In this document: positions 3,952 through 52,259 of the stretch, one piece after another
Layout of the letters: every line of letters starts with the position of its first letter
How positions within the stretch are numbered: the first letter of the stretch is position 1
DNA from: a virus
Taxonomy: Duplodnaviria > Heunggongvirae > Uroviricota > Caudoviricetes
Strand: one strand, 5' to 3'
DNA length: 64,000 nucleotides
Virus record (IMG/VR): IMGVR_UViG_3300009709_000001
Location: 189,336-253,335 of that record
The notes under the pieces: generated by a model
Seen by the model: the letters and a program-made list of their open reading frames with translations, nothing else
What the model was told of the DNA's origin: nothing
Database searches by the model: none
Made by a program: the position numbers and the translations under genes

Positions 3952-3960
3952 TGATAAATA
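3952..3960 (+). promoter_or_regulatory. Late promoter TGATAAATA for the gp26-like gene
   Basis: Motif recurs upstream of structural genes; resembles the T4 late promoter TATAAATA. Confidence 0.7.
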
Positions 3961-35376: not shown

Positions 35377-35391
35377 CATCAACATCCACTG

Positions 35392-35433
35392 AACCTCCGT
35401 TAAAGCTGTAGATAAATAGCCTAAACGGAGGTT
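35392..35433 (+). promoter_or_regulatory. SD-sequestering hairpin with a late-type promoter (AGATAAATA, 35410-35418) between its arms
   Basis: AACCTCCGTT (35392-35401) is the exact complement of AACGGAGGTT (35424-35433), which contains the SD for ATG 35438. Confidence 0.7.
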
Positions 35434-35437
35434 TCTT

Positions 35438-35797
35438 ATGAGCGAAAGACTCAACAAGGCATTGGCATTTGCCAACTATCGCCAAACCCTAAACAATCAA
35501 CTTCTCAAACTAAAAATTCGTGCTGAAGGCACACTTATCTATGCTAAGAATGGTGGCAGCTTTACCATTGGCCAAGAACTTATTTGTTTCCTTGATTATC
35601 TAGTTAGAATCGATATGAAGGAAGCAACATTACTTGATGACAATAGCAATCCAATTGCAATTGATGATGTTCCTGCATTCCTGAAAGAAATTACAGGGCG
35701 TTACTTCGAAGTAACAAATGATTATCTGCGTGAATATCAAGAAATTAGAAAATCGCGCAACGTAAGAAGTATTCTCGACATTAAGGACGAAGAATGA
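35438..35797 (+). CDS. Hypothetical protein, first gene of the glycan cluster
   Basis: Strong GGAGG SD; NGGSF, LLDDNSNPI; ATGA-coupled to the glycosyltransferase. Confidence 0.65.
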   Translation: MSERLNKALAFANYRQTLNNQLLKLKIRAEGTLIYAKNGGSFTIGQELICFLDYLVRIDMKEATLLDDNSNPIAIDDVPAFLKEITGRYFEVTNDYLREYQEIRKSRNVRSILDIKDEE

Positions 35798-36684
35798 CAA
35801 GAGGTGTTCTGATGTATGCCCACAACAATCCCGAAATTGATTATTTCAAGATTGCTTGTGCGAATGCATTAATGGTTAAGAAAAATCTAAAAGTTCCTGT
35901 CGTGCTAGTAACCGACGAAGGCACTTTGGGCTGGGGCAAGAAAGCACTCGGTGAAGATTTTGTTAATCAGTGTTTTGATGAAGTTATCAGTGTCAAACGA
36001 GATTATCGATTTGATAATATGCGCAATTTCAGTGATACATCGTTTTCTACAAAGACATTGCAATTCTATAATTGCAACCATTGGGAAGCATATAATCTGT
36101 CTCCATTTGACGAGACACTGTTCATTGATGCCGATTACTTAATCATGAGTTCTGCTCTTTCCAATTGCTGGGATAGCAACCATGATGTAATGATTGATCA
36201 CAGAATTTACGGCCCAGGTAACGAAGAAAAGCCGCACTCGAAATTTATTGACGATTTTGGTATCAGACTATATTGGGCAACGGTTATCTATTTTAAGAAG
36301 ACCGAGTTTGCAGAGTTCCTATTTTCGCAAGTTAGAGAAATTCAAGAAAACTATCAATATTACCGAGACCTGTATAATTTCTCATCGGGGATGTTTAGAA
36401 ATGATAATGCATTCAGTATTGCAATTCATACATTGAATGGATTTACTCAATCAAACTCCATTGTTGATAAGTTACCTATTCCCGGATTAATGATGGCATG
36501 GGATACACATGATATTCATAGTATACCGGCAGAAAATGACATTATCCTATATTGCGAAAATCCAAAGAATCCCGGAAACTATATGCTTTCCAGATTAAAG
36601 AATACTGATGTACACATCATGAATAAATGGGCTATTAACCGATTTGCAGATAGGCTTATCGAACTATATAAGGTAGAAGAATGA
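35794..36684 (+). CDS. Putative glycosyltransferase (GT-A fold)
   Basis: RGVLMYA, LSPFDETLFIDAD (DxD), FRNDNAFSIA, HIMNK. Confidence 0.7.
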   Translation: MTRGVLMYAHNNPEIDYFKIACANALMVKKNLKVPVVLVTDEGTLGWGKKALGEDFVNQCFDEVISVKRDYRFDNMRNFSDTSFSTKTLQFYNCNHWEAYNLSPFDETLFIDADYLIMSSALSNCWDSNHDVMIDHRIYGPGNEEKPHSKFIDDFGIRLYWATVIYFKKTEFAEFLFSQVREIQENYQYYRDLYNFSSGMFRNDNAFSIAIHTLNGFTQSNSIVDKLPIPGLMMAWDTHDIHSIPAENDIILYCENPKNPGNYMLSRLKNTDVHIMNKWAINRFADRLIELYKVEE

Positions 36685-37538
36685 GTAGAGGTTATCTAAT
36701 TCTAGCGCAAAGAACAAAGAAGGACGATTATCTTCGCCTTGCTTATGCTCTTGCCTTGAGCATTAAGAATAGTCAGTCGAAAGTAAACAATGTATGCCTG
36801 GCCACAAATGTTCATCCAAGTAAGATTCCGGACAAATACAAAGAAGTGTTTGATGAGATTGTGCCTATTCCTTGGACAGATCATGCTGCAAATTCCAAAT
36901 GGAAGATTGAGAACAAGTGGAAATATTACTACATGACTCCATACGACGAAACAGTCATTCTTGATGCTGATATGCTTATTCCGGAGGATATTTCGCATTG
37001 GTGGGATGTCATGGCACAGAAGGATATCTGGATTACAAATAAGCCCAGGACTTTCCGTGGAGATGTAATTACTTCGACAAAATTTAGAGATGCGTTTGTT
37101 TCTAATAAGTTGCCGAATGTCTATACTGCATTCATGTATTTTAAGAAGTCCGATCTTGCAACTGAATTGTTCAAGCTTGTAGAAATCATCTTCAATAATT
37201 GGGAGCGTTTCTATTACGAATTTATGGATGAAAATCGTCCTAAACATTTATCCGGAGATGTTGCATACGCGCTCGCGATTCAACTGCTAGGCATTGAGGC
37301 AGAATGTTTCGGTAATTTAGAAAGTCTTCCAACCTTTGTTCATATGAAAGCTCAATTACAAGGAATCAACGAAAACTTAATTACAGAAAATTGGCCAGAA
37401 AATATTCCTACCTATTTCGGTACAGACGGCAGATTTAAGATTGGTGGCTTCCAGCAAGTATATCCATTCCATTATCATATTAAGGAATGGTTGACAGATG
37501 AAATGATTGAAATTCTCGAAGGGAGGGTTCTAGAATGA
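36681..37538 (+). CDS. Putative glycosyltransferase (GT-A fold), paralogue of the upstream gene
   Basis: RGYLILA, MTPYDETVILDADM, D...ALA, FVHMK, FHYH. Confidence 0.7.
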   Translation: MSRGYLILAQRTKKDDYLRLAYALALSIKNSQSKVNNVCLATNVHPSKIPDKYKEVFDEIVPIPWTDHAANSKWKIENKWKYYYMTPYDETVILDADMLIPEDISHWWDVMAQKDIWITNKPRTFRGDVITSTKFRDAFVSNKLPNVYTAFMYFKKSDLATELFKLVEIIFNNWERFYYEFMDENRPKHLSGDVAYALAIQLLGIEAECFGNLESLPTFVHMKAQLQGINENLITENWPENIPTYFGTDGRFKIGGFQQVYPFHYHIKEWLTDEMIEILEGRVLE

Positions 37539-38149
37539 CCTCATTGGTTTTGATGTATGTCTATTATGACAACGAAGGGGACATTAAGGCAATTTCTCCT
37601 ACGCCCGATATTTCACATAAGGAATTCTTCAATTCTGCAACCTTTCCATTAACAGAAGTAGAATCGTTCCTAACTGGAATGAGAAATCCCTTTGATTATT
37701 CAATCAAAGAGTTTCAGCGTGCAGGTAGCAAATCCTTCAGAATCGCTAGAAAAGTTTCCACAATTAGTCTGACAAGAACACTCGACAATTATTTGACACG
37801 CGTCGATAACAACCCTGACGAAATTCCCACTATTCAGATTAGTATCAATTTGATCGATAAGAATGTACGTTTACGTATCGATGAACAATTCGTTAATATG
37901 CATAAGATCGGAACTGAAGAAGAACAGGAAGACGCGGAAGCATTTATTAAATCGGGACTATCCTCCTTATATGTCACCAAGAAGAATGATCCGTACTCAC
38001 GTCTATTTACAATCATCTTTTCTCCTAAAGAATTATTCGAAAAGGGAAACCTATATTTCGCATACGATGAAACTCTTGACTTTTCCAACGCGAGTGTTTA
38101 CACTAAGAAAATTGTGAAAAACTACGGATTTACGATCAGGGGAAAGTGA
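37535..38149 (+). CDS. Hypothetical protein
   Basis: 204-aa ORF coupled by overlaps on both sides. Confidence 0.55.
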   Translation: MTSLVLMYVYYDNEGDIKAISPTPDISHKEFFNSATFPLTEVESFLTGMRNPFDYSIKEFQRAGSKSFRIARKVSTISLTRTLDNYLTRVDNNPDEIPTIQISINLIDKNVRLRIDEQFVNMHKIGTEEEQEDAEAFIKSGLSSLYVTKKNDPYSRLFTIIFSPKELFEKGNLYFAYDETLDFSNASVYTKKIVKNYGFTIRGK

Positions 38150-39147
38150 TGTCATTTAGATCGATGAATGAGCTTGATGTAATCTTTATCAGTTACGACG
38201 AAGATAACTGTGAAGAGAATTGGGCAGATTTACAAGCCAAGGTTCCTTGGGCACAGAGAGTTCACGGTGTTAAAGGTTCAGATGCGGCACACAAGGCAGC
38301 AGCTAATCTTTCCACTACAGATAGGTTTATTTCTGTCGATGCTGACAACATCGTTGATCCATCATTCTTTGATTTAGAATTGGATTTCGATCATCCAAAG
38401 ATGCAAGGTAAGGCGATTAGTTGGGCAGCTCAGAATGTTGTCAACGGATTAGAATACGGTAACGGTGGATTGAAATGTTGGCCTAAACAGTATGTACTCG
38501 ATATGCGTACACATGAGAATGCCGACAGCAATGACGAGCGTAATCAGGTTGATTTCTGTTGGGAAGATTCCTATGTGCAGATGACTAATCAATATTCTAT
38601 TACCCATCCTAACGGTAGTCCACGACAAGCATTTCGTGCAGGTTTCCGTGAAGGTGTGAAAATGACATTGGTGCAAGGCGGCAAGCCCGATGTAGATAAC
38701 TTTAAGAAGGTTATCTGGTGGGGGAATTACAAACGTCTTATCACATGGTGTTCTGTTGGTGCAGATATCGAAAACGGACTGTGGGCAATGTATGGTGCTA
38801 GACTTGGTACCTACATGACCACACTTACCGACTGGGATTATATTCAAGTTCGAGACTTTGAATATTTAAACACATTATTCGATGAAGTTAAGGAACAGTT
38901 CCGAGTATCATTAAATGATCCGAAGGGAACAAAGTGTTACAAAACCGGACTATGCTATTCTAAAGATTTACTCAATGCCGAAATTGCATCGTTAGGTGAT
39001 AAACTTAGAAAGGGTCTGGGAATGGAAATTGCCGAACTCAACGAAGAGCAAAGTAAATTCTATAAAGCGGCCTACGTTAATGTTCCACGAATGAACAAGA
39101 TGTTTACTGAAGAAGAACTCAACGATCTTCGTAGATTGAATAAATGA
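38146..39147 (+). CDS. Putative glycosyltransferase (GT2-like)
   Basis: FISYDE, RVHGVKG..AAH, VDADN, NGLEYGNGG, QAFRAGFREG. Confidence 0.65.
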   Translation: MMSFRSMNELDVIFISYDEDNCEENWADLQAKVPWAQRVHGVKGSDAAHKAAANLSTTDRFISVDADNIVDPSFFDLELDFDHPKMQGKAISWAAQNVVNGLEYGNGGLKCWPKQYVLDMRTHENADSNDERNQVDFCWEDSYVQMTNQYSITHPNGSPRQAFRAGFREGVKMTLVQGGKPDVDNFKKVIWWGNYKRLITWCSVGADIENGLWAMYGARLGTYMTTLTDWDYIQVRDFEYLNTLFDEVKEQFRVSLNDPKGTKCYKTGLCYSKDLLNAEIASLGDKLRKGLGMEIAELNEEQSKFYKAAYVNVPRMNKMFTEEELNDLRRLNK

Positions 39148-39737
39148 TTGATTCGAAATTTATTGTCCGATATACAAATGGCCTGTATGCAACTCCGCCA
39201 GAGTCTGCACCACGTTATGAAGAGTTTCGAGATATGTTTAGCTCTGGCCAACTTGCAAGCAAGGAATGGGCAGTCAAGACACTTTCAGAAGTAGTAAAAC
39301 TCGACTTTCAGCATGTGATTATTGCAGGAGCATGGTTTGGCACTTTAGGAATGATGTTGAAGAGCAAATTCCCAGGAATCACACTTACTCTGCTCGATAT
39401 TGATCCACGCTGTGAAATATTCCTCAAGAACATCACTGTTTACGATCGAGACGTATATTGTGTTACCGAAGATATGTATAAGCACGTATACACCGAAAAT
39501 ATCGTAATCAATACCAGTTGCGAACATATTCCGGATATCAAACAATGGCTTAAACAGGTATCCCCGGATTCCCTAATTCTTTTGCAATCGAACAATAACG
39601 ATAAAGACGAAGGTCACATAAATTGTGTCCAATCTGAAAACGAGTTTATCGAAAAGAGTGGGCTAACAGAAATCCTATATTCGGGAAAGTTAGTTACACC
39701 GATGTATACACGATTTATGATCATAGGAAAGAAATGA
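39144..39737 (+). CDS. Class I SAM-dependent methyltransferase-like protein
   Basis: IAGAWFG, LDID, VINTSCEH, LQSNN, RFMIIG. Confidence 0.65.
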   Translation: MIDSKFIVRYTNGLYATPPESAPRYEEFRDMFSSGQLASKEWAVKTLSEVVKLDFQHVIIAGAWFGTLGMMLKSKFPGITLTLLDIDPRCEIFLKNITVYDRDVYCVTEDMYKHVYTENIVINTSCEHIPDIKQWLKQVSPDSLILLQSNNNDKDEGHINCVQSENEFIEKSGLTEILYSGKLVTPMYTRFMIIGKK

Positions 39738-41131
39738 GAAAATTAAATATTCCGATCTTGAATTTTAGAGATCAGATTAATGAAATTAGCCCATCCTTTT
39801 GCGCAGCGAAATGGAAGCAGGTTACATTGCATTTACAGACCGGGCACACTCATAGTTGCCACCATCCACGAACTCACAAAATTCCATTATCGGAACTTGA
39901 AGCTAATCCATCGGCACTTCATAACACCAACTACAAGAAACTTCAACGCAGGAAGATGTTAGAGGGTGAACGCCCAGAGGAATGCGATTACTGCTGGCGA
40001 GTTGAAGATAGTGGTCCAGATGCGATTAGTGATCGTATCTATAAGTCGGCCGACAACTGGGCAATTGATCATATCGATGCAATTAAGGAAATGCCTTGGG
40101 ATTACGATGTAACACCATCGTATCTCGAAGTGTCCTTTTCTAGTGTCTGTAATTTCAAGTGCAGTTACTGCACACCGCAGGTTAGTAGTAAATGGATGGA
40201 AGAGATTGAAAAATTCGGTCCTTATCCTACTTCTAATCAGTTTAACAATATCGAATGGTTAAAACAGATCGATGCAATGCCTATTCCACACAAGGATGAA
40301 AATCCTTATGTTGATGCATTCTGGAAATGGTGGCCAGAAATTTATACTAAGCTCGAACACTTCCGTATTACTGGTGGTGAACCATTACTGACCAAAGATA
40401 CATTCAAGGTATTGGATTATGTCATTGAAAATCCAAATCCTGCTCTAGAACTTTCTGTGAACAGCAATATGTGTGTTCCGGAAGCATTGTTTGAAAAGTT
40501 CATTGAAAAAATCAAGATCATTTGCAGTGAGAAGAAAGTCAAACAATTCAAGATCTTTACCAGTGCCGAAGCACACGGTGCCAAAGCTGAGTATATCAGA
40601 AACGGTTTGAATTACAACCAGTGGCTTGCAAATATCAGGCGTGTTCTTGATGAAGTTCCTGGATGCACATTTACTGTGATGAGTACCTATAATGCGTTGA
40701 GTGTATCGAGCTACAGTGAATTTATTAACGACATTCTTGCCATTAAGCGTGAATACAGTGACCATAATACTGTTCATTCACCGATTATTCTCGATACTCC
40801 GTATTTGCGTTATCCTAACCATCAGGCAATCTTTATTTTGCCGAAAGAGATGCTTGCACCAATCTATGATCAAGTCACATTGATGTATCAGAATTTACAA
40901 AACGGAGATTGGTACGGAACTGCAAATAAGGGTTTCTATCAATGGGAAGCCGATAAGTTCAAACGCATTTATGAACTGATTATGCACAAGGAAGATCCAC
41001 CGGGTGTCACACGCGACCAGATCGACTTTGTAAAATTCGTCGATGAGCACGATTATCGTCGTGGAACAAACTTCCTCGAAACATTCCCGGAATTTACTGA
41101 TGTATATCATAAATGGAAAGCGGCAATCTAA
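39734..41131 (+). CDS. Radical SAM protein with an N-terminal Cys-rich (twitch/SPASM-like) region
   Basis: CNFKCSYC (CxxxCxxC), TGGEP, FCAAKW, SCHH, ECDYCW. Confidence 0.88.
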   Translation: MRKLNIPILNFRDQINEISPSFCAAKWKQVTLHLQTGHTHSCHHPRTHKIPLSELEANPSALHNTNYKKLQRRKMLEGERPEECDYCWRVEDSGPDAISDRIYKSADNWAIDHIDAIKEMPWDYDVTPSYLEVSFSSVCNFKCSYCTPQVSSKWMEEIEKFGPYPTSNQFNNIEWLKQIDAMPIPHKDENPYVDAFWKWWPEIYTKLEHFRITGGEPLLTKDTFKVLDYVIENPNPALELSVNSNMCVPEALFEKFIEKIKIICSEKKVKQFKIFTSAEAHGAKAEYIRNGLNYNQWLANIRRVLDEVPGCTFTVMSTYNALSVSSYSEFINDILAIKREYSDHNTVHSPIILDTPYLRYPNHQAIFILPKEMLAPIYDQVTLMYQNLQNGDWYGTANKGFYQWEADKFKRIYELIMHKEDPPGVTRDQIDFVKFVDEHDYRRGTNFLETFPEFTDVYHKWKAAI

Positions 41132-41865
41132 AAATCGCATTATGCATTACCGGGCAACCAAGGACGTGGGAAAGATGTTATCAAACATGGTTTGATAACA
41201 TTTCTCATCTCGGCAAGATTGATACTTTCTGCCATCTCTGGAATTATAATACCCTTCCATCAATAGCTGCAGGATATCAGGGCGACATGAAAAATCGTCC
41301 TGTTCCTGCAGCAGAATTAGAGAGAATGAAGAAGGTATTACGTCCTAAGGCTTTTGTAGCCGATCCCATAATGCATTTCAGACAACCGCCCGTAAAGCAT
41401 CCGATTGCTTGGTGGTCATTAGGTCAATTCTATTCTATAAAGAAATGTGCTTACCTAAAAAGGAAGTACGAATTGCTTATGGGTTTTGAATATGATCTTG
41501 TATTCAGAATTCGTACAGATCTATTCATTCGACAACAAGTTAACATTCCGGAAATTAAACCAAACGAATTGTATACCTGTTCAAACAGCTATGACAAGGA
41601 ATATGACCGTTTTCGCATCGGTGATATCTTCTATTATGGAAATAGTTACGCCTATGATCAAGCCTGTTCATTTTACGATAAATTCAATTTTGTCGATTCC
41701 TACGAAGTGGTACCGGGACGTAATGATTTTCCACCCGAACTAGCATTTTATTATCATCTGCGTTCGTTGGGAATTGACAACAGATCAATTTTTGCCGATT
41801 GTAAGATTGCACGAACAGAAGAGTTTCGAGATTTAAAGGGTGGCCTGGCCGCATTCGAAATATGA
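41113..41865 (+). CDS. Putative glycosyltransferase-like protein (KIAxCxSG family)
   Basis: KIALCITGQPR, HLW, YDLVFRIRTD, IGDIFYYG; start uncertain. Confidence 0.55.
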   Translation: MESGNLKIALCITGQPRTWERCYQTWFDNISHLGKIDTFCHLWNYNTLPSIAAGYQGDMKNRPVPAAELERMKKVLRPKAFVADPIMHFRQPPVKHPIAWWSLGQFYSIKKCAYLKRKYELLMGFEYDLVFRIRTDLFIRQQVNIPEIKPNELYTCSNSYDKEYDRFRIGDIFYYGNSYAYDQACSFYDKFNFVDSYEVVPGRNDFPPELAFYYHLRSLGIDNRSIFADCKIARTEEFRDLKGGLAAFEI

Positions 41866-42734
41866 AAATAGCAGTGTGCATGAGTGGCGAATCCAGGACA
41901 TGGAAAATTGCTGCGCCATCGATTATTAATTTCTTCAAATCTCAAAATCACGAAGTGAAATTCTTTGGCCATACATGGGCAATGAATAGTTGGAAAACAT
42001 TCGATAACAATGGTATCAGCGATTACGAGCACGAACGTCTTGATCAGATGCATCTTAAAGAACAACTTCAGAAAACTTTTAACTTTGAAAAGCTCGTAGT
42101 CGATCCTCCATATACATTCGATATTTCTCGAATCGAGGATACTGAAGTTAGAAAGAATCCCGAACACTGTATCGGTTGGGAACTTGCTGCGAACTATATA
42201 GTTCCGCGAGTTTGGTCATCTCTATTCAATAGTCAGATGCAAAGCAATTTCCTGAAACAGGAATACGAAATCGAAAATAACATGCAATTCGATTTTGTAG
42301 TAAAATGCAGATTTGATATTGCATATCATCCATCGGTTAGATTTGAAAATTATCTGCCGACAAAGGAGATGACATTTAAGAATGGTGTATATGCAAGCCT
42401 ATCTACATTTAGATCTGAATTTAATCTTCCTGTAATTGATGATGTAATTTATTTCGGCAGCTCACCGGCAATGGATCTACTCGAAACAGTTTACAGAGTT
42501 TATCAGAATGCAGATTTCTTCAACATGGTAAAGGCCGGATATTATGATCCCGCCTATAAGGTATGTGGACCGAATGTGATACTTCACAAATGGGCAACGA
42601 TGAAGAACATTCTAATTTGTGCATTGCCGACTATGGTTTATTATGCAGTTGTTCGTCGTGAATTTGCGAATATAGATCCGTGTCTTGAATATGATAAATT
42701 ACATGAAGCAACTTTGGCATGGGGAAAACAGTGA
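41862..42734 (+). CDS. Putative glycosyltransferase-like protein (KIAxCxSG family)
   Basis: KIAVCMSGESR, HTW, FDFVVKCRFD, IDDVIYFG. Confidence 0.55.
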   Translation: MKIAVCMSGESRTWKIAAPSIINFFKSQNHEVKFFGHTWAMNSWKTFDNNGISDYEHERLDQMHLKEQLQKTFNFEKLVVDPPYTFDISRIEDTEVRKNPEHCIGWELAANYIVPRVWSSLFNSQMQSNFLKQEYEIENNMQFDFVVKCRFDIAYHPSVRFENYLPTKEMTFKNGVYASLSTFRSEFNLPVIDDVIYFGSSPAMDLLETVYRVYQNADFFNMVKAGYYDPAYKVCGPNVILHKWATMKNILICALPTMVYYAVVRREFANIDPCLEYDKLHEATLAWGKQ

Positions 42735-43612
42735 AGACTTTATTTACGAACGGTGACAGTTGGGCATTTGGCAGTGAAATTATGGCACCCGAATTTTGTA
42801 TGCCTAAAGGACAACCGGGTGCCGGAATGGCAGGAAAATATAAAGCCGGTTACGATTGTTCTATGCCACTTAATGATTTCTATCGAGTTCCAAAAATCTG
42901 GGCATCGCATTTAGGAAAGCACCTAAATGCCGAAGTAGTCAACTGGGCACGGCCTGCCCGCAGTAATGATACAATCTATGATAGTACCATTGCCTGGGTT
43001 CTTGAAAACTATGTAATGCCCGGCAGGGATGTCAGCGATCTTACAGTCGTTATCGGATGGTCAAGTCCAGAGAGAAAAGATATTGTTATCGAAGACAATG
43101 ACGATAAGATTAGAAAGTTTACACTCTGGCCTGCGATGCAAGAAACCAAATATTACTCGTCTGATATTGTCAAAGCATTCTTCAAATTCTATGTAACTCA
43201 TATGTGGGTCGAGCAGGAATATTTCAAACGATTTATTCAGCAATGTTTCAACCTGCAGAACTTCTTTGAACGACAGGGCATCAATTACTATATGTTCAAC
43301 TCGTTCTATATGCCGTCTGTTCCAACGCATCCCGATAATTGGAAGAATGTGAATCTTCTCGAAATGATTAACGCATGGAAGAATTTAGATATCGGGTGGG
43401 CCGATCACTATTACAGTTGGTCAGTCGAGCAACGCTCTCTTCTAAACCAATGGGCATTAATCGATGCAGATAGATTTATTGGCAAAGATACCGAAACATT
43501 CAGTTCTTACATTCAGAAGAATGTGCAGAATTACAAACGAATGAATAACTGGCATCCGTCGCCAGATTCTCACGAAGCTTGGGCAGCATATCTCGCAACC
43601 AAGATCAAATGA
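42731..43612 (+). CDS. SGNH/GDSL-like acyl hydrolase or acyltransferase
   Basis: NGDSW, SND, VIGWS..ER, C-terminal WHP...H; GTG start at 42731. Confidence 0.6.
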   Translation: MKTLFTNGDSWAFGSEIMAPEFCMPKGQPGAGMAGKYKAGYDCSMPLNDFYRVPKIWASHLGKHLNAEVVNWARPARSNDTIYDSTIAWVLENYVMPGRDVSDLTVVIGWSSPERKDIVIEDNDDKIRKFTLWPAMQETKYYSSDIVKAFFKFYVTHMWVEQEYFKRFIQQCFNLQNFFERQGINYYMFNSFYMPSVPTHPDNWKNVNLLEMINAWKNLDIGWADHYYSWSVEQRSLLNQWALIDADRFIGKDTETFSSYIQKNVQNYKRMNNWHPSPDSHEAWAAYLATKIK

Positions 43613-44337: not shown

Positions 44338-45128
44338 AAGAAATGATGGTTGTTTGTGGCGATAGTTATAACGCCGGTATTGGATGTGTGAATATGCATA
44401 CACAGGCCTATGGTGTTGTAACTGCGCAACATTTCGATTGGGATCTAATTACGTTGGCAAGAGGAAGTGCGAGTAACTATGCAGTCCATCTTCAAGCAAT
44501 GTATGCAGCCGAATTATTGCCACACCTAGTTATTATCGGCCAGACAAGCTATGATAGATTAGAGTGGGTAATGGATACACATTCTAAACCTGCACACGAA
44601 CAACCAACTCTACATAATCTAAACTATCATCTGTATCCACCACATCATTTTCCACAACCACATCATGATAAGCCAATGCCTTTCCATTTACAGGATAGTG
44701 CAGATTATAAACCATATCTGTTAACTGAACAAGTGGGCGGCATCGATGATTATCTTACACGGTTTAAGAAGAATCCCGGCTTCCCTTATTATGAGAGACT
44801 GCATACAGAACCACGCGAGAAGCTAGAGCTAATCCGCGACTATTATGTGAATTGCGTTGACTACGCCATTAAACGAGACTACGACATAGGGCTGCTCCTG
44901 CAAGCGTATACCTTCCTAAAACGTAAAGGAATTAATTGTCTAATCTTGACTAGAGATATCGGCCTATTCGGTAAATTTATTGATCAGGCAGATTTGATGC
45001 ATCAGGATTGGTGGTACTTATCGAATATATATCCTGACACAATCGGTAGTATGCATACAAGCGAAATTGGTCACCAGGATACCGCAGATCGACTAATTGC
45101 AAAAATCAAGGAAAATAATCTTGCCTAA
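44334..45128 (+). CDS. SGNH/GDSL-like protein
   Basis: CGDSY, ARGSASN, T..DRLE, C-terminal HTSEIGH. Confidence 0.6.
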   Translation: MKEMMVVCGDSYNAGIGCVNMHTQAYGVVTAQHFDWDLITLARGSASNYAVHLQAMYAAELLPHLVIIGQTSYDRLEWVMDTHSKPAHEQPTLHNLNYHLYPPHHFPQPHHDKPMPFHLQDSADYKPYLLTEQVGGIDDYLTRFKKNPGFPYYERLHTEPREKLELIRDYYVNCVDYAIKRDYDIGLLLQAYTFLKRKGINCLILTRDIGLFGKFIDQADLMHQDWWYLSNIYPDTIGSMHTSEIGHQDTADRLIAKIKENNLA

Positions 45129-45873
45129 ACTACTCTATGCGAATGGATGCAGTTGGACAGCCGGAAACGGTATCCAAGAAGATAAAAATTTCGAGCCCGG
45201 CAAACGACTCGATGAATACGCCTGGCCTAAAGTTCTCGCCGACAAACTTGGCTATGAAGTTACAAATAGTTCCGAAGGTGCCGGAAGTAATCAACGCATT
45301 GTTCGAACAACTGTAAACTTCGTCAAGACGATCCCCGAAAGTCAACGCAAAGATGTTCTCGTAGTTATCGGATGGACTACGCCTGAACGTGGAGAGATTT
45401 ATCTTAGTGATGAGCATGTACAATATCCGGGTTGGTATAAGTTCAATGCGGCACAGAAGTTTTCAGATCAATTCCATCCATCAACAATAGTTCCGAAAGA
45501 GTATGTTAAGAAAATCGATGACTATCAGAGGATGTATGTTGAGCATGTTCATAGTCAGCATGCCAACCTTGTAAACTATTTCCAGCAGAAATATCTGCTT
45601 GCAAACCTATTACAGAATCTCGGAATTAAACATTGCTTCTTCAATAGCTTACCGGGCATTTGGCATCCCGATCAGACAATGATGAATTTCTACAAAGAAC
45701 AACAAGCATCGATTGTAACACCTAACATGGTACAGGTTACAGAGATGCATCACCTATTAAGAGAGAAAGGTATCAAACTTAGCTCCTGTGTTCATCCTAT
45801 GATTGACGGGCATAGAGTTTGGGCCGAATATCTCGAAACATTTATTAAGAACCTATATGGAGACAGTGTATGA
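45121..45873 (+). CDS. SGNH/GDSL-like protein
   Basis: NGCSWTAG, GAGSN.RI.R, IGWT..ER, HPMIDGH; TTG start inferred. Confidence 0.6.
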   Translation: MPKLLYANGCSWTAGNGIQEDKNFEPGKRLDEYAWPKVLADKLGYEVTNSSEGAGSNQRIVRTTVNFVKTIPESQRKDVLVVIGWTTPERGEIYLSDEHVQYPGWYKFNAAQKFSDQFHPSTIVPKEYVKKIDDYQRMYVEHVHSQHANLVNYFQQKYLLANLLQNLGIKHCFFNSLPGIWHPDQTMMNFYKEQQASIVTPNMVQVTEMHHLLREKGIKLSSCVHPMIDGHRVWAEYLETFIKNLYGDSV

Positions 45874-46301
45874 CCAAAATCGTAAAGAAACCATGGGGAG
45901 AGGAAATGTGGATTGCAGATGGAGTTGATATGCCATATGCGCTGAAACGTATCTTCTTTAAAGCCGGAAATAAGACTAGTATCCAGGTTCATAAACTCAA
46001 GCATGAAACAAACTATGTTTTGTCCGGAACTGGACTTCTAATGCTTTCCGATCTATTCCTTGATGTTGACAAGTATCATGAACTCACAAAATCGGATATT
46101 AATCGATACATTGCATCAATGAAGATTATCAAACTCAATCCTGGTGATATTTTTCATGTCACCCCGGGGCATGTACATCGAGTAATTGCAATAGAAGATC
46201 TAGTATTCATGGAAGCAAGTTCTCCAGAACTCGACGATGTAATTCGTTTAGAGGATGATACAAACAGAGGAAATGGAAGAATTGAATCAGAACATGAATA
46301 A
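45870..46301 (+). CDS. Cupin (mannose-6-phosphate isomerase-type) protein
   Basis: KPWGEE, SIQVHKLKHET, PGHVHR, EASSPELDDVIRLEDD. Confidence 0.8.
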   Translation: MTKIVKKPWGEEMWIADGVDMPYALKRIFFKAGNKTSIQVHKLKHETNYVLSGTGLLMLSDLFLDVDKYHELTKSDINRYIASMKIIKLNPGDIFHVTPGHVHRVIAIEDLVFMEASSPELDDVIRLEDDTNRGNGRIESEHE

Positions 46302-47820
46302 ACTAACGGTACTGATACTTGCGGCAGGATATGGTCGTCGCATGGGACCATTTTCTAGAATGATAAACAAGGCACTGGTACCGTATGGTAACAAGCCATT
46401 AATTAGTCATATCTTTGATAGATTTGATAAGGGTACAAAATTTGTAATCGCTTGCGGTAACCAATCACAGCAGGTTCATGATTATATCAGTCTGGTACAC
46501 AATGATAAAGATATTACACTTATCGACGTTCCCGATTTTACAGAAGGAACAACCGGTCCTGCAACAACTATTCGATATTGTGCAGAACACTTACCCGGTG
46601 CCTTTATGTGGATCTCCTGTGATACATTGTTCAACTTCGATTATAAAAAGCATCTTGATCATAACTGGATTGGCGTCTGTCCTGTTGACTCCGGGGTTGC
46701 CAAGGACTACTGCTGGGTTGAGCGCGACGGAGAAAACATTGAGAAAGTTCATAATAAAGAACCATCTTCTCACGCGGTAGACGCATTTATTGGATTGATG
46801 TATGTCAAGGATTCGACATTTATTAAAGCACTCGACCTAAGACAGGCAAAGGAAGTCTATGAGGGATTCCCGGGCTTAGGCCTGAAGGCACACACGGTTA
46901 AGATGTGGCAAGACTTTGGTACCTATGAGAAATGGAAGCAATGTGCAAAAGACTTTCCGGAAGTTAGTTTTCCTAAACCAGATGAGTTACTTTATATCGA
47001 CAATGGCAAGATTGTCAAGTTCACAACAAATCCCGATCTCGCAACATTACGATATAATCGGGCTATGATAAATCCTAGTTGTATGCCCGATAATGTAGAT
47101 CTACAAGGACAGTTCTTAACCTATGATAAATCACCGGGCGAAACATTCTATTATAATCTAACACCGGATACATTTGTTCAGTTTCTACATTGGGCTGAAG
47201 AGAATTTATGGATACACCCGGATATACAAGATAAGTTTGATATTGCTGATAACTTCTATCGTAAGAAAACTCTTGAACGACTTGGTAAGTTTCGTGTAAA
47301 ATACAATTCGTGGGAAGAGCCGTCGACAGTTAATGGTGTTTCGGTAAAATCGATAGATGAGTATATTGCTGATTTGGATTTGCAATTATTCCTTGCACAA
47401 GAAACTAAATGGTGCTTCATCCACGGGGATATGCAATTTGATAATATCATTTACAATGCCAATACTGGTAAATTTACTGCAATCGATTGGCGAACAGATT
47501 TTGCAGGTGACGAATACGGTGATATGTATTACGATCTTGCCAAGATGCTAGGTGGATTATACCTGAGTTACAAATATGTCAAGGAAGACAAGCTTGCATA
47601 TTATGAAGACGAAAATGGTGCAATTCTAACAGATCTATCTGTGCCAGATGTTGAGATCTATGCTGATATTCTTCGCAACTGGATGATTGAAAGAAATTTG
47701 AATTGGGACAAAGTTCAATACCTTGTACCAATCATATATCTGAATATGGCACCATTACACGATACACCGTTTGACAAATATCTAATCGCGTTGGCACAAC
47801 TTCACTTTTCAAAACTATGA
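46294..47820 (+). CDS. Fused sugar nucleotidyltransferase + APH/choline-kinase-like phosphotransferase
   Basis: ILAAGYGRRM...NKAL, CD, WQDFGT; C-terminal HGDMQFDNI, IDWR, YYDLAK. Confidence 0.8.
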   Translation: MNKLTVLILAAGYGRRMGPFSRMINKALVPYGNKPLISHIFDRFDKGTKFVIACGNQSQQVHDYISLVHNDKDITLIDVPDFTEGTTGPATTIRYCAEHLPGAFMWISCDTLFNFDYKKHLDHNWIGVCPVDSGVAKDYCWVERDGENIEKVHNKEPSSHAVDAFIGLMYVKDSTFIKALDLRQAKEVYEGFPGLGLKAHTVKMWQDFGTYEKWKQCAKDFPEVSFPKPDELLYIDNGKIVKFTTNPDLATLRYNRAMINPSCMPDNVDLQGQFLTYDKSPGETFYYNLTPDTFVQFLHWAEENLWIHPDIQDKFDIADNFYRKKTLERLGKFRVKYNSWEEPSTVNGVSVKSIDEYIADLDLQLFLAQETKWCFIHGDMQFDNIIYNANTGKFTAIDWRTDFAGDEYGDMYYDLAKMLGGLYLSYKYVKEDKLAYYEDENGAILTDLSVPDVEIYADILRNWMIERNLNWDKVQYLVPIIYLNMAPLHDTPFDKYLIALAQLHFSKL

Positions 47821-48515
47821 AAAAATTCTTCAGACTAGGTCAACATCCAAGTAAAACTGGTGAAAGGTATTACAATACACTCTTCCAGAAAATGGATTTA
47901 CCATATACCTATACAGCAGTCGAATGTGAAAACCTAAAGGAAAGCATTGACGAATTGCTAAAGGAAGGGGCATCGGGGTTTAGTGTCACCATGCCATTTA
48001 AACAAGAGATCAGAAAATTTCTTGTTACCGAAGATATGTATGTTCGACAATTCCAGAGCTGTAATACTGTTCTTGTCAAGGACGGACAACTTCACGGATA
48101 CAACAGTGATGTGTGTGGTGCAGTTTATGCGAAACTTAGTATGCCGATGAAATCAAGTGTTGCTGTTCTAGGCGATGGTGCAATGGGTATGATGATGTAT
48201 AAGATGCTAAACGAAAATTGTGCTGTCTATTCTCGTAAAAAAGAGAACTGGCACAAGCGCCACGATGGAAGAGATGTCTATGTAAACTGCACCACATTCG
48301 GAACTTCAATTCCCGCATCACCATTAGATATCATTCCCGAAAATACAAAACTGATTATAGATCTGGCCATGCCCGGAACTCAATTAGAATTGCAATGTTC
48401 TGAGGCAGGAGTTAAATACATTAGCGGTAAGGAATTTTATAAGAACCAGTTCATCGAACAGTTTGAAATCTTTACCGGAATTAAAATTACAGAAGAAGAA
48501 TTCAATAGCATATGA
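47817..48515 (+). CDS. Shikimate/quinate dehydrogenase-family (AroE-like) oxidoreductase
   Basis: GFSVTMPFK, CNT, GYNSD, VLGDGAMG, VNCT. Confidence 0.8.
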   Translation: MKKFFRLGQHPSKTGERYYNTLFQKMDLPYTYTAVECENLKESIDELLKEGASGFSVTMPFKQEIRKFLVTEDMYVRQFQSCNTVLVKDGQLHGYNSDVCGAVYAKLSMPMKSSVAVLGDGAMGMMMYKMLNENCAVYSRKKENWHKRHDGRDVYVNCTTFGTSIPASPLDIIPENTKLIIDLAMPGTQLELQCSEAGVKYISGKEFYKNQFIEQFEIFTGIKITEEEFNSI

Positions 48516-48979
48516 TTAAACACCTAATTCTCGATGTTGACGGAGTATTGACAACAGGTCATTTCTTCTATAGCGAAAATGGAAAGATGTTCAAGGCCTT
48601 TGGTCCGCACGACAAGGATGGGTTAGAGTTAGCAAAGGAGATGGGCTTGTCTATCGATTTTGTTACAGCAGACGAAACCGGATTTAAGATTACCTCTGCA
48701 CGAATTGTCAGAGATTGGAAATTTAATCCATCGCAGTTGCATCTTGTAAGAGATGGTAAGAGATTAGATTGGATTGCTGCTCGATACGATATCGACGAAG
48801 TTGCTTACATGGGCGATGGCATCCACGATGCAGTAATTCTAGATGCTGTTGGCTTAGGTATTGCACCAAACACAGCTCGCATCGAAGCTAGACTTGCAGC
48901 AGATTATGTCACATTGAGTAACGCAGGCAACGGTGCTGTTCTTGATGCTGTTCTTTACATAAAGGATAATAATGTTTAG
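48512..48979 (+). CDS. KdsC-like HAD sugar-phosphate phosphatase
   Basis: LDVDGVLT, K.F...D, AYMGDGIHD, GNGAV. Confidence 0.85.
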   Translation: MIKHLILDVDGVLTTGHFFYSENGKMFKAFGPHDKDGLELAKEMGLSIDFVTADETGFKITSARIVRDWKFNPSQLHLVRDGKRLDWIAARYDIDEVAYMGDGIHDAVILDAVGLGIAPNTARIEARLAADYVTLSNAGNGAVLDAVLYIKDNNV

Positions 48980-49952
48980 ACTAGGTGTAGGTCCAATGAG
49001 TGATGATATTAATCGTATCATCAACGAATATGCAAAAGAGAATAACATCATGGTTGTTGCTTCACGCAACCAGGTTGATTATAAAGATGGCTACGTCTGT
49101 AAGACAGCCGAATTGCCTTCCTATTTTACCAATGCCGGTACAATGCTTTGTCGTGACCATTGTGGCCCATACTTCAAAGACCTAGATAAGAATAAATCAA
49201 TAGGTGCTGCAATGGAAGAATGCTTCCGTACTATCGACGCAGATATTGATGCAGGCTTTGATTTAATTCACGTTGATGTTTCTAGGATTCCAGAGAAGCA
49301 ACTCGATTACGCAAGAACACTAATCGAATACATTCTAAAGAAATCACCTGGCATGAAACTCGAATTTGGCAGCGAGAATAATACCGGGCACGATCTTGTA
49401 CCTAGTGCATCACGTCTAGAAGAACAACTCGAGTTCATCAAAGAATACAAAGATAACATCATCTTCTTTGTGACACAAACCGGTAGCTTTACACAACATA
49501 CTCAAGTCGGTAACTTTGATGTTGTTGCCAATTCGAGCATTGTCGAGAAAGTTCATAATGCCGGATTTAGATTTAAAGAACACAATGCCGATTATCTAAG
49601 TAGACCAGAAGTTGAATTAAGAAAACTTGCAAAAGTCGATGCAATGAACATTGCACCACAGCTCGGCGCAGTACAAACATCAATCTCAAGAAAGCTTAGT
49701 GCAACTACCTCCGGTGTTACAAAAGAATGGCATGACTTTGCACAGATGGTATATAGTAATAACCTTTGGCAGAAATGGATGCCATTGGGAATGAATGATC
49801 CCGAAATGGCAGTACAGGTATCTGGGCACTATTTCTTTGACACCGCTCAATATCAAGCTGTACTGTCCGCTATCGACGGATACACATTTCGTTATATGCT
49901 TCGAGCAGAATTGTTCAGCATCTTCAATTGTTATCATCAAGGATTACTATGA
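48972..49952 (+). CDS. GatZ/KbaZ-like TIM-barrel (sugar-phosphate epimerase/aldolase-related) protein
   Basis: ASRNQVD..GY, RDHCGP, GFDLIHVD, KEHNADY, NIAPQLG. Confidence 0.65.
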   Translation: MFRLGVGPMSDDINRIINEYAKENNIMVVASRNQVDYKDGYVCKTAELPSYFTNAGTMLCRDHCGPYFKDLDKNKSIGAAMEECFRTIDADIDAGFDLIHVDVSRIPEKQLDYARTLIEYILKKSPGMKLEFGSENNTGHDLVPSASRLEEQLEFIKEYKDNIIFFVTQTGSFTQHTQVGNFDVVANSSIVEKVHNAGFRFKEHNADYLSRPEVELRKLAKVDAMNIAPQLGAVQTSISRKLSATTSGVTKEWHDFAQMVYSNNLWQKWMPLGMNDPEMAVQVSGHYFFDTAQYQAVLSAIDGYTFRYMLRAELFSIFNCYHQGLL

Positions 49953-50053
49953 TTGAATGGTTTAAAAGTATCGTAAATCGCATCAAGAGCGAAATCAAAT
50001 ATCGCAAGAAGATGCGTGACATTAAGAAACGCGATCCACATATCTACAAATGA
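49949..50053 (+). CDS. Small basic protein (34 aa) upstream of the carbamoyltransferase
   Basis: Manually translated MIEWFKSIVNRIKSEIKYRKKMRDIKKRDPHIYK; ATGA overlaps on both sides. Confidence 0.6.
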   Translation: MIEWFKSIVNRIKSEIKYRKKMRDIKKRDPHIYK

Positions 50054-51522
50054 AAATTACCTGGGGAATATCTGCTCTCAACCATGATGCATCTATTACG
50101 GTGGTCAGGGATAACGAGATCTTATTTGCAGCGCATGCCGAAAGGTATTCGCGTGTTAAGAATGACCAACACCTCAACTTCACAATGATTGCTGATGCAT
50201 TGGAGTATGGTCTACCAAATCAAATCGTGTGGTTCGAAAAACCATTTGTTAAGAAACTTCGACAAGCTTATGCAGGTCAATGGAGAGAAGTATTAAGCAC
50301 TACTCCGGCGACCTATCTTGCAGGATACGAATTTCAGGATACCCCGACTTATTATATTCCACATCATAAGTCACATGCGGCTGCAGGATTCTATACATCG
50401 CCGTTCAATGATGCGACAGTCATTGTGGTTGATGCAATCGGCGAATGGGATACCATCTCTGTATGGAATGCCGGAGGCAATGAGCTCGAAAAAGTTTATT
50501 CGGTAAAGTATCCTAGCTCATTAGGACTGCTCTACTCAGCATTTACTCATCGTATTGATCTTAAGCCGAACGAGGAAGAATATATCTTGATGGGTATGGC
50601 CGCATATGGTGAACCTATCTATGTCGGTGATATTAAAAGGGATTTCATCGAAGATACTTCTGCACCCAATTTTACCTTAAAGGAAAATGTTCACAGAGGT
50701 ATTCGTTGGTGGAAGCCGGAGCTAACCACTGAACAAGATTATAAGAATATCGCCGCAAGCATTCAGGTCATTACAGAAGAATACATGCTCAAACTTGTCG
50801 AATGGGCAAGTCAGAACACTCCGTCAAAGAATCTCATTCTCATGGGCGGGGTTGCACTGAATTGTGTCGCAAATGAAAAGATTGCAAGAGCGGGATATTT
50901 TGATGACATCTGGATTATGCCTAATCCGGGCGATGCAGGAAGCTCTCTCGGTGCTGCTGCTGCATTCCTAAAGACAAAATTGAACTGGCAAGGCCCATAT
51001 CTCGGAACTGATATTGATCGTCCGTTTGATACGAACACAGTTGTCGATGCTATCCTAGAACATAAGATTATCGGTATTGCAACAGGACGAGCAGAATTCG
51101 GACCACGGGCATTAGGCAATCGTTCCTTGATTGCAGACCCACGTGGAGACGAAATCAAATCCAAAGTAAACGATATTAAGAAGAGGCAACAGTTTAGACC
51201 GTTTGCACCGATCGTTCTTGAACACCTTGCACATGAATATTTCGATATGCCAGTTAAGACAAGTCCGTATATGCAATTCACGGCTAAGTGTTTGCGTCCA
51301 GACTTATTTCCTGCGATTTGTCACGTAGACGGCAGCTCCCGCGTACAGACTCTCAACGAGCAACAAAATCCTGCAATTTACAAGGTTTTGCTAGAATTTT
51401 ACCAGAGAACTGGGTGCCCTATGTTGCTGAACACGAGCCTAAACATAAAAGGTGAACCACTTGTCGATACTTGGATCGATGCAATGAAGTTCCAACAAAA
51501 GCATAACGTACCGATGTTCTAA
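50050..51522 (+). CDS. O-carbamoyltransferase (NodU/CmcH/TobZ family)
   Basis: HDAS, ERYSRVKND, HHKSHAA, DAIGE, MGMAAYG, GGVALNC, GDAG, EFGPRALGNRS, FRPFAP, HVDGSSR, LNTSLN. Confidence 0.93.
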   Translation: MKITWGISALNHDASITVVRDNEILFAAHAERYSRVKNDQHLNFTMIADALEYGLPNQIVWFEKPFVKKLRQAYAGQWREVLSTTPATYLAGYEFQDTPTYYIPHHKSHAAAGFYTSPFNDATVIVVDAIGEWDTISVWNAGGNELEKVYSVKYPSSLGLLYSAFTHRIDLKPNEEEYILMGMAAYGEPIYVGDIKRDFIEDTSAPNFTLKENVHRGIRWWKPELTTEQDYKNIAASIQVITEEYMLKLVEWASQNTPSKNLILMGGVALNCVANEKIARAGYFDDIWIMPNPGDAGSSLGAAAAFLKTKLNWQGPYLGTDIDRPFDTNTVVDAILEHKIIGIATGRAEFGPRALGNRSLIADPRGDEIKSKVNDIKKRQQFRPFAPIVLEHLAHEYFDMPVKTSPYMQFTAKCLRPDLFPAICHVDGSSRVQTLNEQQNPAIYKVLLEFYQRTGCPMLLNTSLNIKGEPLVDTWIDAMKFQQKHNVPMF

Positions 51523-52259
51523 TGAAAGCTGTCCTCTTTATTTTTGGACGATTGCATTTTCTTGAGTCTTCGTTCAGACATTATCCGTTAACTGATGTAC
51601 TCGACGGTATAGACATAGATGTTTTTGTCCACGGCGACAAAACCTACAAAGAGGTTGTCGTTGATACGTCCACAGTTTATTCGGGTGTTAACGATCCTAT
51701 CGCGGTACGCGAACTTATTAGAAGTTCGTTGGATAGATCTATTACAATTGAGCAGGAGAACAACAAGTTCTTCAAGCGTACCAAGATGCTGATGTATAGA
51801 TGGAAATGGTTAACAAATATCCTAACCGAACAAGGTTATCCGGATACTACAACCATCATGACCATACGTGGTGATGTTGCGCATGATTTCACCGATATCC
51901 CATCGGTACAAAGTCTGCTAATCAACGGAACAGATAAATGGCACTGTTCTTGGAAAAATGAATCAGCAGCCGATGATTTGATGTTTGTCACCAATCTCGG
52001 GCTGCTGAAAAAATATATCGACTATTGCAAAGTACGAGTTACAGAATTAGAATTCGACTCCCATAACAACCTTGCAGAGTTTCTGAACATTAACGAATGT
52101 TGGGAGAAACTTCCTTGCGATACTTCGGTAATTAGAAATACCACAACAGATTTCAGTTCAATAAAGGCCATTGCTGAAGCGAGTGACAATTACAACGAAA
52201 GTCGACGTGTATGTCACTATTCGACTCCCGGTGTTAAGCCGCGACCACCGCAAACTTGA
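51522..52259 (+). CDS. Hypothetical protein, distant KIAxCxSG-family-like
   Basis: MKAVLFIFGRL, DVFVH, IRGD, DDLMF. Confidence 0.5.
   Translation: MKAVLFIFGRLHFLESSFRHYPLTDVLDGIDIDVFVHGDKTYKEVVVDTSTVYSGVNDPIAVRELIRSSLDRSITIEQENNKFFKRTKMLMYRWKWLTNILTEQGYPDTTTIMTIRGDVAHDFTDIPSVQSLLINGTDKWHCSWKNESAADDLMFVTNLGLLKKYIDYCKVRVTELEFDSHNNLAEFLNINECWEKLPCDTSVIRNTTTDFSSIKAIAEASDNYNESRRVCHYSTPGVKPRPPQT

Follow-up and report, generated by a model that had tools for sequence, protein, structure and literature searches.

A phage-encoded operon of 20 open reading frames (ORFs), g01 to g20, was analysed at positions 35438-52259 of a 64,000-nucleotide window. The window covers bases 189336-253335 of the genome of an uncultured phage in IMG/VR; this genome is complete at 385,394 bp and carries direct terminal repeats. 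We concluded that the operon very probably builds and decorates a glycan from an activated sugar of its own making. A glycan synthesis and tailoring cluster had been proposed in a first-pass annotation of the same DNA, and both the enzyme families and the operon structure support that proposal. In the best-supported reading, to which we assign a probability of about 0.5, the glycan is put on a virion protein late in infection, in the cytoplasm. A virion protein as the target is suggested by the position of the genes, their timing, the solubility of all the encoded proteins and the lack of any lipid-carrier or export function.

All 20 ORFs (119-521 aa) are located on the + strand. The gene junctions overlap in 18 of 19 cases, 11 of these by 4 bases, and the sole intergenic gap, 97 nt, is found 5' of the carbamoyltransferase gene g19. 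This agrees with the co-directional, overlap-coupled genes described earlier; the count of 21 genes was not reproduced, as 20 ORFs and no 21st were found. Inside the operon neither sigma-70-like promoters (55 found vs 55.5 expected) nor terminators (16 found vs 11.9 ± 3.3 expected) were enriched, and the end of g20 overlaps a convergent gene on the minus strand. The 20 genes are one operon-like unit and not a chance run. The operon lies at the end of a + strand block reaching from about 11.4 kb to 52.3 kb of the window, which encodes virion structural proteins together with the hub/lysozyme and wedge proteins of a baseplate and a virion protein as long as 3281 aa. The gene for the latter is followed by those for the Ser/Thr-rich proteins u322, u324 and u325, and then by the operon.

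The motif GATAAATA occurs 77 times genome-wide. 41 copies lie 8-70 nt 5' of same-strand starts vs approx. 4 expected, which corresponds to a roughly ten-fold enrichment upstream of genes. The genes preceded by it include those for the sheath, the tube, the baseplate, the giant virion protein and fibre-like proteins, as well as g01. Among the ten largest such genes seven were structural by PHROGs (tail sheath, tail tube, tape-measure-like, fibre-like and three virion structural proteins) and none matched a replication or nucleotide-metabolism family in that database. Examples in the window lie at 3953, 12019, 18107, 22480, 33885 and 35411. There the motif stands before g01 and u324 as well as before a baseplate wedge gene and the genes for the 3281-aa protein and a virion structural protein. 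Judged from this distribution, GATAAATA is a strong candidate for the late-promoter motif of the phage. The late-type promoter claimed for the start of the cluster is therefore supported indirectly, by the enrichment of the motif before virion genes and its presence before g01. The copy before g01 is situated in the loop of a hairpin (35391..35434, + strand), whose 10-bp perfect stem takes up the g01 ribosome-binding site, GGAGG; its folding energy was -21.3 kcal/mol (z = -4.3). A hairpin with a promoter motif in the loop recurs 5' of g01 in the related loci L003, L004, L022, L029, L034, L039, L049 and L080. The stems differ in sequence across at least 8 distant loci, and the loop element is sometimes TATAAT-like.

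The first gene, g01 (35438..35797; + strand, as are all operon genes below), encodes a conserved 119-aa protein that is an invariant member of the core. It had no match in Pfam, PHROGs, NCBIfam or PDB and no detectable relative of known structure. The next two genes encode GT8/glycogenin-like glycosyltransferases of the GT-A fold, g02 (35794..36684) and its paralogue g03 (36681..37538), which share 26% identity (E 8e-12); g03 also matches phrog_1903. No Pfam family was found at E 0.01 for g02 or g03. Against the PDB their joint profile, A4, found glycogenin-1 at E 5.3e-7; the matches to glycogenin-1 and -2 had E values from 5e-7 to 1e-5 and covered only about 100 N-terminal residues. D114 (within DAD), D204 and H274 are invariant among the 27 sequences of A4, so that a DxD motif and a C-terminal His ligand are both present. 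The third transferase, g05 (38146..39147), is DxD glycosyltransferase-like, with a GT-A N-terminal domain, a helical C-terminal domain and an invariant DxD (D65 and D67). The g05 model (pLDDT 85.8) resembled B4GALNT1, STIV A197, WrtF and PBCV-1 A64R with Z values of 9.0-7.8 over residues 3-156, and Foldseek alone stayed below significance on this model. In IMG/VR at least 590 matches to g05 were counted. With g02, g03 and g05 the three predicted DxD glycosyltransferases were all recovered.

Three further genes encode GT-A-fold glycosyltransferase-like proteins. The model of g08 (41113..41865; phrog_13607) had a pLDDT of 86.8 and matched GT31/GT6 enzymes with a Foldseek E of 1.6e-6 and a Z of 12.4 over 190 aa. 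Its paralogues g09 (41862..42734; BLASTP E 3e-12 to g08) and g11 (43579..44337; BLASTP E 1e-11 to g09) matched phrog_13607 at 2.8e-12 and 2e-11, respectively. Of the three to four paralogues announced for this group, g08, g09 and g11 were retained, and g20 as a fourth was rejected with an hhalign probability of 1%. g20 (51522..52259), the last gene of the operon, encodes a 245-aa protein with no family match in our searches; the same was true of g04 (37535..38149), a 204-aa protein seen in the closest relatives only.

Genes g14 to g18 form a sugar-activation module. g14 (45870..46301) encodes a cupin like the C-terminal domain of mannose-6-phosphate isomerase (PF01050, 23.8 bits vs cut-off 23.6). 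In g15 (46255..47820) an N-terminal sugar-1-phosphate nucleotidyltransferase is joined to a C-terminal APH-type kinase (Pfam NTP_transf_3 at residues 19-126, 1.9e-12; APH at residues 367-432, 8.3e-6). With hhalign the g15 profile aligned to the RB69p052 kinase at 93% probability (E 2.9e-7), with the HGD...N and D...YD motifs inside the aligned region, and to the RB69p053 transferase at 86% probability (E 4.9e-6); the domain order of g15 is identical to that of RB69 gp52:53/AfhE. By these profile alignments g15 is a remote homologue of the RB69 gp52:53/AfhE sugar-phosphate kinase/pyrophosphorylase. AfhE (RB69 gp52:53, DLP3 gp82) has a pyrophosphorylase as its N-terminal and an APH-type kinase as its C-terminal part and acts in the UDP-arabinose route of these phages. 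Its kinase forms a sugar 1,5-bisphosphate, the HAD phosphatase AfhF strips the distal phosphate and the pyrophosphorylase makes the nucleoside diphosphate sugar (NDP-sugar) (PMC13326640, published in 2026). Since g15 aligned to both RB69 domains, g15 and g17 probably share this kinase-phosphatase-pyrophosphorylase logic.

g16 (47817..48515) encodes a shikimate-dehydrogenase-like NAD(P) oxidoreductase, in which only the substrate-binding domain passed the Pfam cut-off (Shikimate_dh_N, 48.1 bits vs 27); it reached 86 bits with TIGR00507, for which the AroE equivalog cut-off is 200. g17 (48512..48979) is a KdsC-like HAD sugar-phosphate phosphatase with the DxDG nucleophile motif. The KdsC-like TIGR01670 was its best match (5.1e-20), at 72 bits under the curated cut-off of 106.95. 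g18 (48972..49952), a GatZ/KbaZ-like enzyme of the class II aldolase fold, scored 24.9 bits against PF08013, the gathering cut-off being 26.7. A four-sequence profile of g18 (A2) found GatZ 2fiq at E 4.5e-10, and the structure neighbours in the Atlas were GatZ_KbaZ-like clusters (TM up to 0.87) that carry PF08013. Pfam, TIGR and profile matches are thus in line with the cupin, nucleotidyltransferase-kinase fusion, AroE-like, KdsC-like and GatZ-like enzymes read from the sequence at first. In Atlas clusters from other phages the cupin and the nucleotidyltransferase-kinase are fused into one protein of ~650 aa, which ties g14 and g15 together. Atlas clusters also contain GatZ-like proteins fused to a Methyltransf_23 domain in other phages. 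For the Atlas name 'WeoK', which belongs to a bacterial cluster near g15, no paper was found.

The module resembles the AfhE/AfhF system of RB69, DLP3 and HY126 (PMC13326640) in the N-terminal nucleotidyltransferase, the C-terminal APH-type kinase and the HAD phosphatase partner. It differs in that the phosphatase is KdsC-like and in that no SIS-type arabinose-5-phosphate isomerase was matched among the 20 cluster proteins (Pfam, PHROGs; NCBIfam where searched). Cupin, GatZ-like and AroE-like enzymes are present instead, and a different sugar is therefore expected. g18, g14 and g16 would stand in for the isomerase and deliver another sugar phosphate. This may be a tagatose- or talose-type hexose (GatZ-like 4-epimerase and cupin isomerase) or a ulosonic acid (KdsC-like phosphatase and AroE-like reductase), and nothing in our data discriminates between the two. 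A HAD/GatZ-like/nucleotidyltransferase-kinase triad of the g17-g18-g15 type was also found in the Planctomycetota metagenome-assembled genome JAHJAR010000067.1 (L084 9457-12702). There it lies inside a polysaccharide locus with GT1-like, Wzm, Wzt with a C-terminal domain, methyltransferase, GT2 and Bac_transf priming enzyme genes. The occurrence in a bacterial Wzm/Wzt locus argues that such a module serves glycan synthesis and not only DNA modification.

The tailoring enzymes were mostly assigned by family membership. g07 (39734..41131) is a radical S-adenosylmethionine (SAM) enzyme with an N-terminal twitch (auxiliary Fe-S) domain. It belongs to NF033640 with 349.4 bits vs a cut-off of 170, as had been anticipated for a radical SAM enzyme, and its translation contains the CxxxCxxC motif. 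The predicted methyltransferase is g06 (39144..39737), which is class I SAM methyltransferase-like. The assignment is weak: its profile A6 matched the putative methyltransferase 3dtn at E 1.4e-4, with weak Pfam methyltransferase matches in addition. Three SGNH-like proteins, equal in number to those predicted, are encoded by g10 (42719..43612; DUF6071, Pfam 52.5 bits vs cut-off 27), g13 (45097..45873; DUF6071, 65.3 bits vs 27) and g12 (44334..45128), a divergent member that aligns in A5 and has no Pfam match of its own. The SGNH columns G12, S14, G18, N83 and H279 are invariant in the 19 sequences of A5, g12 keeps the Ser, Asn and His, and the SGNH-like profile gave weak matches to CE2/GDSL esterases. 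g19 (50050..51522) carries both domains of a NodU/CmcH-type O-carbamoyltransferase (Carbam_trans_N 169.1 bits, cut-off 24; Carbam_trans_C 181.5 bits, cut-off 27), in agreement with the NodU-type enzyme proposed, and matches phrog_1601 at 4e-107; it scored 161 bits against the NodU equivalog vs a cut-off of 1000. Tandem arrays of 3-5 N-twitch radical SAM paralogues were seen in some related loci, 3' of the core or beside the carbamoyltransferase gene (L058 9067-15171, L121 11739-20750, L173 10960-15980).

Directly 5' of the operon, and beyond the coordinates given in the first-pass annotation, u325 (34429..35376, + strand) encodes a Ser/Thr-rich protein of 315 aa, a candidate acceptor or structural partner. 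Ser and Thr make up 19-22% of u322, u324 and u325 (22% in u325) vs 12.8% genome-wide, and in 18 homologues of u325 the mean was 24.4%, compared with 13.0 ± 4.1% for the other ORFs in these loci. The u325 profile had no PDB sequence match and no named homologue among 598. The upstream genes had been called fibre genes. This holds in part: u324 matches the PHROG 'virion structural protein', and u322 and u325 are Ser/Thr-rich members of uncharacterised families.

The linkage between these fibre-like genes and the operon is conserved in relatives. With u325 as the anchor at least 543 matches were obtained, and in 53 of the 60 u325-anchored loci with at least 5 kb downstream, g02 and g05 followed within 6 kb on the same strand. 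Of the 38 g05-anchored loci flanked by at least 6 kb on either side, all had g01 and g02, 37 had g03, 28 had g07 and 23 had g06. When anchored on the radical SAM enzyme, 80 loci were obtained, and about 36 of them had the order u322-u324-u325-[g01]-g02-g03-g05-g07. Of the same 80 loci, 12-19 had g08-g13, 10 had the g14-g18 block and 31 had g19. Nearly the whole gene set, in nearly the same order and with 30-60% identity, was found in L007 and L020. The two closest genomes, L095 and L096 (362-365 kb; g05 71-75% identity), keep u322 to g06. After g06 they encode a 400-aa protein of no known family, a TylF-like methyltransferase and a UDP-glucose/GDP-mannose dehydrogenase, a different cassette in place of g08-g20, before they rejoin the downstream genes of the window. 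We concluded that a constant core is combined with an exchangeable sugar-supply and tailoring arm.

Whole-cluster megablast against 50,697 deposited phage records gave no match, and the core is present in a single one of these genomes, that of Ralstonia phage RsoM2USA. The homologue of u325 there is ORF355, and ORF354 to ORF347 are the counterparts of g01, g02, g03, a positional g04, g05, g07, a g05-like gene and g06, all annotated as hypothetical (PMC8504454). A second RsoM2USA locus (L001 15993-21569, ORF203-199), ~95 kb from the glycosyltransferase core, encodes SGNH, radical SAM, SGNH, SGNH and carbamoyltransferase proteins, likewise all annotated hypothetical. No relation was detectable between u322 or u324 and the RsoM2USA proteins at the same positions, including ORF356, a virion protein confirmed by mass spectrometry.

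We propose that the operon would function as a self-contained cytoplasmic glycan factory expressed alongside the virion genes. The GatZ-like g18, the cupin isomerase g14 and the AroE-like reductase g16 would convert a central sugar phosphate to an unusual sugar phosphate. The kinase domain of g15 would phosphorylate this at the anomeric position, the HAD phosphatase g17 would take off the original phosphate and the nucleotidyltransferase domain of g15 would then make the NDP-sugar. Such a supply would follow a logic established by experiment for the phage AfhE/AfhF UDP-arabinose route and for ADP/GDP-heptose. Six soluble GT-A-fold transferases (g02, g03, g05, g08, g09 and g11) could assemble a short glycan, to be decorated by the radical SAM enzyme g07, the methyltransferase g06, the SGNH acyl-handling proteins g10, g12 and g13 and the O-carbamoyltransferase g19. 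The acceptor would be a co-produced virion protein, most likely u325 immediately upstream or else one of the neighbouring fibre-like proteins. With the core g01-g02-g03-g05 constant and the sugar-supply and tailoring arm swapped between related phages, the sugar on the particle surface would be diversified.

Several observations weigh against glycosylation of a virion protein. The acceptor is proposed from gene position and composition alone, and a high Ser/Thr content is in any case frequent in fibre proteins. The u325 family, with its 598 unnamed relatives, is wholly uncharacterised, and its presence in the virion is presumed. Part of the linkage between u325 and the core may reflect inherited synteny among relatives. 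g16, g17 and g18 all fall under the curated equivalog or subfamily cut-offs and are relatives of the named enzymes, not members. The virion analysis of RsoM2USA covered ten abundant bands only, and the cluster proteins were not among them (PMC8504454). In virions of the cultured jumbo phage XacN1, placed in one clade with RsoM2USA (PMC8504454), at least two glycoproteins were reported (PMC5852040), which is a precedent for the reading. No homologue of g03, g05 or g07 was detectable in XacN1, and its glycoproteins are therefore a parallel and not direct support. Finally, peripheral cytoplasmic transferases can use host lipid-linked intermediates without having membrane segments.

This last point touches the strongest of the alternatives, remodelling of the host envelope, which we regard as unlikely. 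Soluble transferases at the inner face of the host membrane would act on undecaprenyl-linked O-antigen, capsule or core intermediates and the host would export the glycan. The changed cell surface could, for example, block superinfection or keep progeny from sticking to debris. Many O-antigen transferases are peripheral and lack membrane helices, in line with such a function, and the sugar-activation triad was found in a bacterial Wzm/Wzt polysaccharide locus. Comparable fibre-linked GT8/radical SAM islands of pelagimyophages and cyanomyophages have been read as host O-chain modification (PMC7029224). On the other side, all 20 cluster proteins lack a membrane segment (maximal 19-residue Kyte-Doolittle mean 1.37; 99 of 660 genome ORFs reach at least 1.6) and a signal-like N-terminus. 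Bac_transf (PF02397), Glycos_transf_4 (PF00953) and ABC2_membrane (PF01061) were absent from the complete genome, with positive controls, so the phage has no priming transferase, flippase-type protein or ABC-2 exporter of its own. The host-surface alternative offered in the first-pass annotation is weakened to the extent that there is no phage-encoded route to the surface. The virion-gene promoter motif and the structural block also indicate late timing, with little time before lysis, and the SGNH O-acyl enzymes of envelope glycans normally act outside the cytoplasm. Envelope remodelling would further leave the two-way linkage to one Ser/Thr-rich phage protein unexplained.

The islands in question, the host recognition cluster (HRC) of pelagimyophages and cyanomyophages (Zaragoza-Solas et al. 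2020, PMC7029224), are among the closest known systems. They are variable islands in the structural module, with fibre genes, GT8-type transferases and radical SAM cassettes, their content varies among close relatives, and carbamoyltransferase homologues are common in these phages too. The operon described here has the same setting, behind baseplate, giant virion and fibre-like genes, and its distal arm differs between relatives. The HRC, in contrast, belongs to T4-like marine phages and lies between VrlC and gp14, whereas our operon is found in a 385-kb jumbo phage related to RsoM2USA. Its authors read it as modification of the host O-chain, a function inferred there as here. The HRC description contains neither the g01-g02-g03-g05 core nor the N-twitch radical SAM enzyme nor the activation module of five genes.

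A soluble product is a second alternative, which we consider improbable. The operon would then make a free glycoconjugate or pseudo-oligosaccharide, unattached to the particle, that acts on the host or on competitors in the manner of carbamoylated aminoglycosides or Nod-factor-like signals. Its enzymes do resemble the palette of natural-product sugar pathways (TobZ/NodU-type carbamoyltransferase, a twitch radical SAM enzyme of the BtrN-like class, AroE-like, methyltransferase and acyl-handling enzymes), and the acceptor of the operon glycan is itself an inferred one. A search of the cluster revealed neither a scaffold-forming enzyme (cyclase, non-ribosomal peptide synthetase/polyketide synthase, aminotransferase) nor an exporter, however, and six transferases rather suggest an oligosaccharide on an acceptor. 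The constant association with a Ser/Thr-rich protein and the virion block in hundreds of contigs would remain unexplained.

Hypermodification of DNA, with the NDP-sugar transferred to a hydroxylated pyrimidine as in the arabinosyl-5-hydroxycytosine of RB69/DLP3 or the glucosyl-hydroxymethylcytosine of T4, is very improbable in spite of the two-domain architecture and remote homology that g15 shares with RB69 gp52:53/AfhE, the UDP-arabinose supplier for DNA arabinosylation, and of the HAD phosphatase partner g17, as in the AfhE/AfhF route. N177D and L143D/E mark dCMP hydroxymethylases and D169N marks 5-hydroxy-dCMP synthase (PMC13326640). The complete genome encodes one thymidylate-synthase homologue, which passes the thymidylate synthase equivalog (259 bits vs cut-off 108). 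Its active site, ...ALPPCH... and ...RSNDVPYGLPYN..., corresponds to L143, C146, D169 and N177 (E. coli numbering), the residues of ThyA, with none of these substitutions. ThyX, C5 DNA methylase (PF00145) and TGT were not found in the genome, with positive controls; a Tet_JBP search was also negative and carries little weight, since no control genome matched either. The operon transferases have the GT-A fold, in contrast to the GT-B-like DNA arabinosyltransferases tabulated in PMC13326640. Nor does the operon share the 5-hydroxy-dCMP synthase, dCTPase context or GT-B transferase of the AfhE/AfhF systems; it is late and structural, in a block behind baseplate genes, and not replication-linked, whereas the RB69 cluster adjoins the DNA polymerase gene. 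The canonical ThyA residues and the lack of a C5 methylase or TGT agree with the earlier judgement against DNA modification.

Glycosylation of virion proteins by soluble viral transferases has precedents. In mycobacteriophages, in PBCV-1 (Vp54/A64R) and on Mimivirus fibrils, viral cytoplasmic transferases are encoded near structural genes, as here, and the g05 model is similar at the fold level to PBCV-1 A64R (Z 7.8) and Mimivirus R655 (Z 7.2). The sequence families are unrelated beyond the GT-A fold, and the glycan has been shown in those systems, whereas here it is predicted from the genes. For mycobacteriophages, glycosylation of capsid and tail-tube subunits is summarised in PMC12619734. 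Mycobacteriophage Maravista has just two putative transferases (PMC11256854), in contrast to the 20 genes found here with full sugar activation, radical SAM chemistry and carbamoylation. Large cyanomyoviruses encode many glycosyltransferases of unknown role (PMC12801897), and in the literature we found no paper testing a fibre-linked glycan cluster of any of these kinds. The glycosylation of streptococcal serine-rich-repeat adhesins (GtfA/B and GT8 enzymes, e.g. GlyE) offers an analogy only. There, too, a Ser/Thr-rich fibrillar protein is encoded beside soluble GT-A/GT8 transferases, which decorate the adhesin before export or assembly, and GlyE is among the weak fold matches of g05. The likeness is at the fold level; no GtfA/B-type priming enzyme and no SecA2/Y2 export are present here.

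Extending the virion-protein reading, we suggest tentatively, and with somewhat less than even confidence, that the jumbo phages of this lineage, and many aquatic phages through related modules, give their particles an 'O-antigen' of their own, made of a fixed core and swappable cassettes. In this scheme g01, the two GT8-like enzymes and g05 would prime a glycan on a dedicated Ser/Thr-rich virion protein. The cassettes would supply rare sugars, here by AfhE-like activation together with radical SAM, O-methyl, O-acyl and O-carbamoyl tailoring, and their exchange would diversify the chemistry of the virion surface much as in bacterial serotypes. Should the glycan indeed be on the particle, this would be by far the most elaborate machinery for virion glycosylation known from a bacteriophage, and a widespread one, to judge by the IMG/VR matches to the core transferase g05. 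Phages would then diversify their own surface sugars by cassette swap, which would bear on host recognition, evasion of hosts and grazers and particle stability. New enzymes are on offer as well, among them a radical SAM enzyme with an N-terminal twitch, members of three uncharacterised GT-A families and a relative of the AfhE route for a sugar other than arabinose. As the cultured RsoM2USA carries the core, the idea is directly testable.

Two neighbouring genes were also noted. A GIY-YIG homing endonuclease gene (window 33316-33903) is located between the fibre-like genes u322 and u324; it occupies the same site in L095 (68% identity) and is absent in L096 and L004. Downstream of the operon, at window 52560-53078, the minus strand encodes a Ser/Thr-rich protein of 172 aa. 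Its last ~45 residues are 55-60% identical to ORF ends in the otherwise unrelated loci L058-L078, where these ORF ends are situated just 5' of methyltransferase, radical SAM and carbamoyltransferase clusters.

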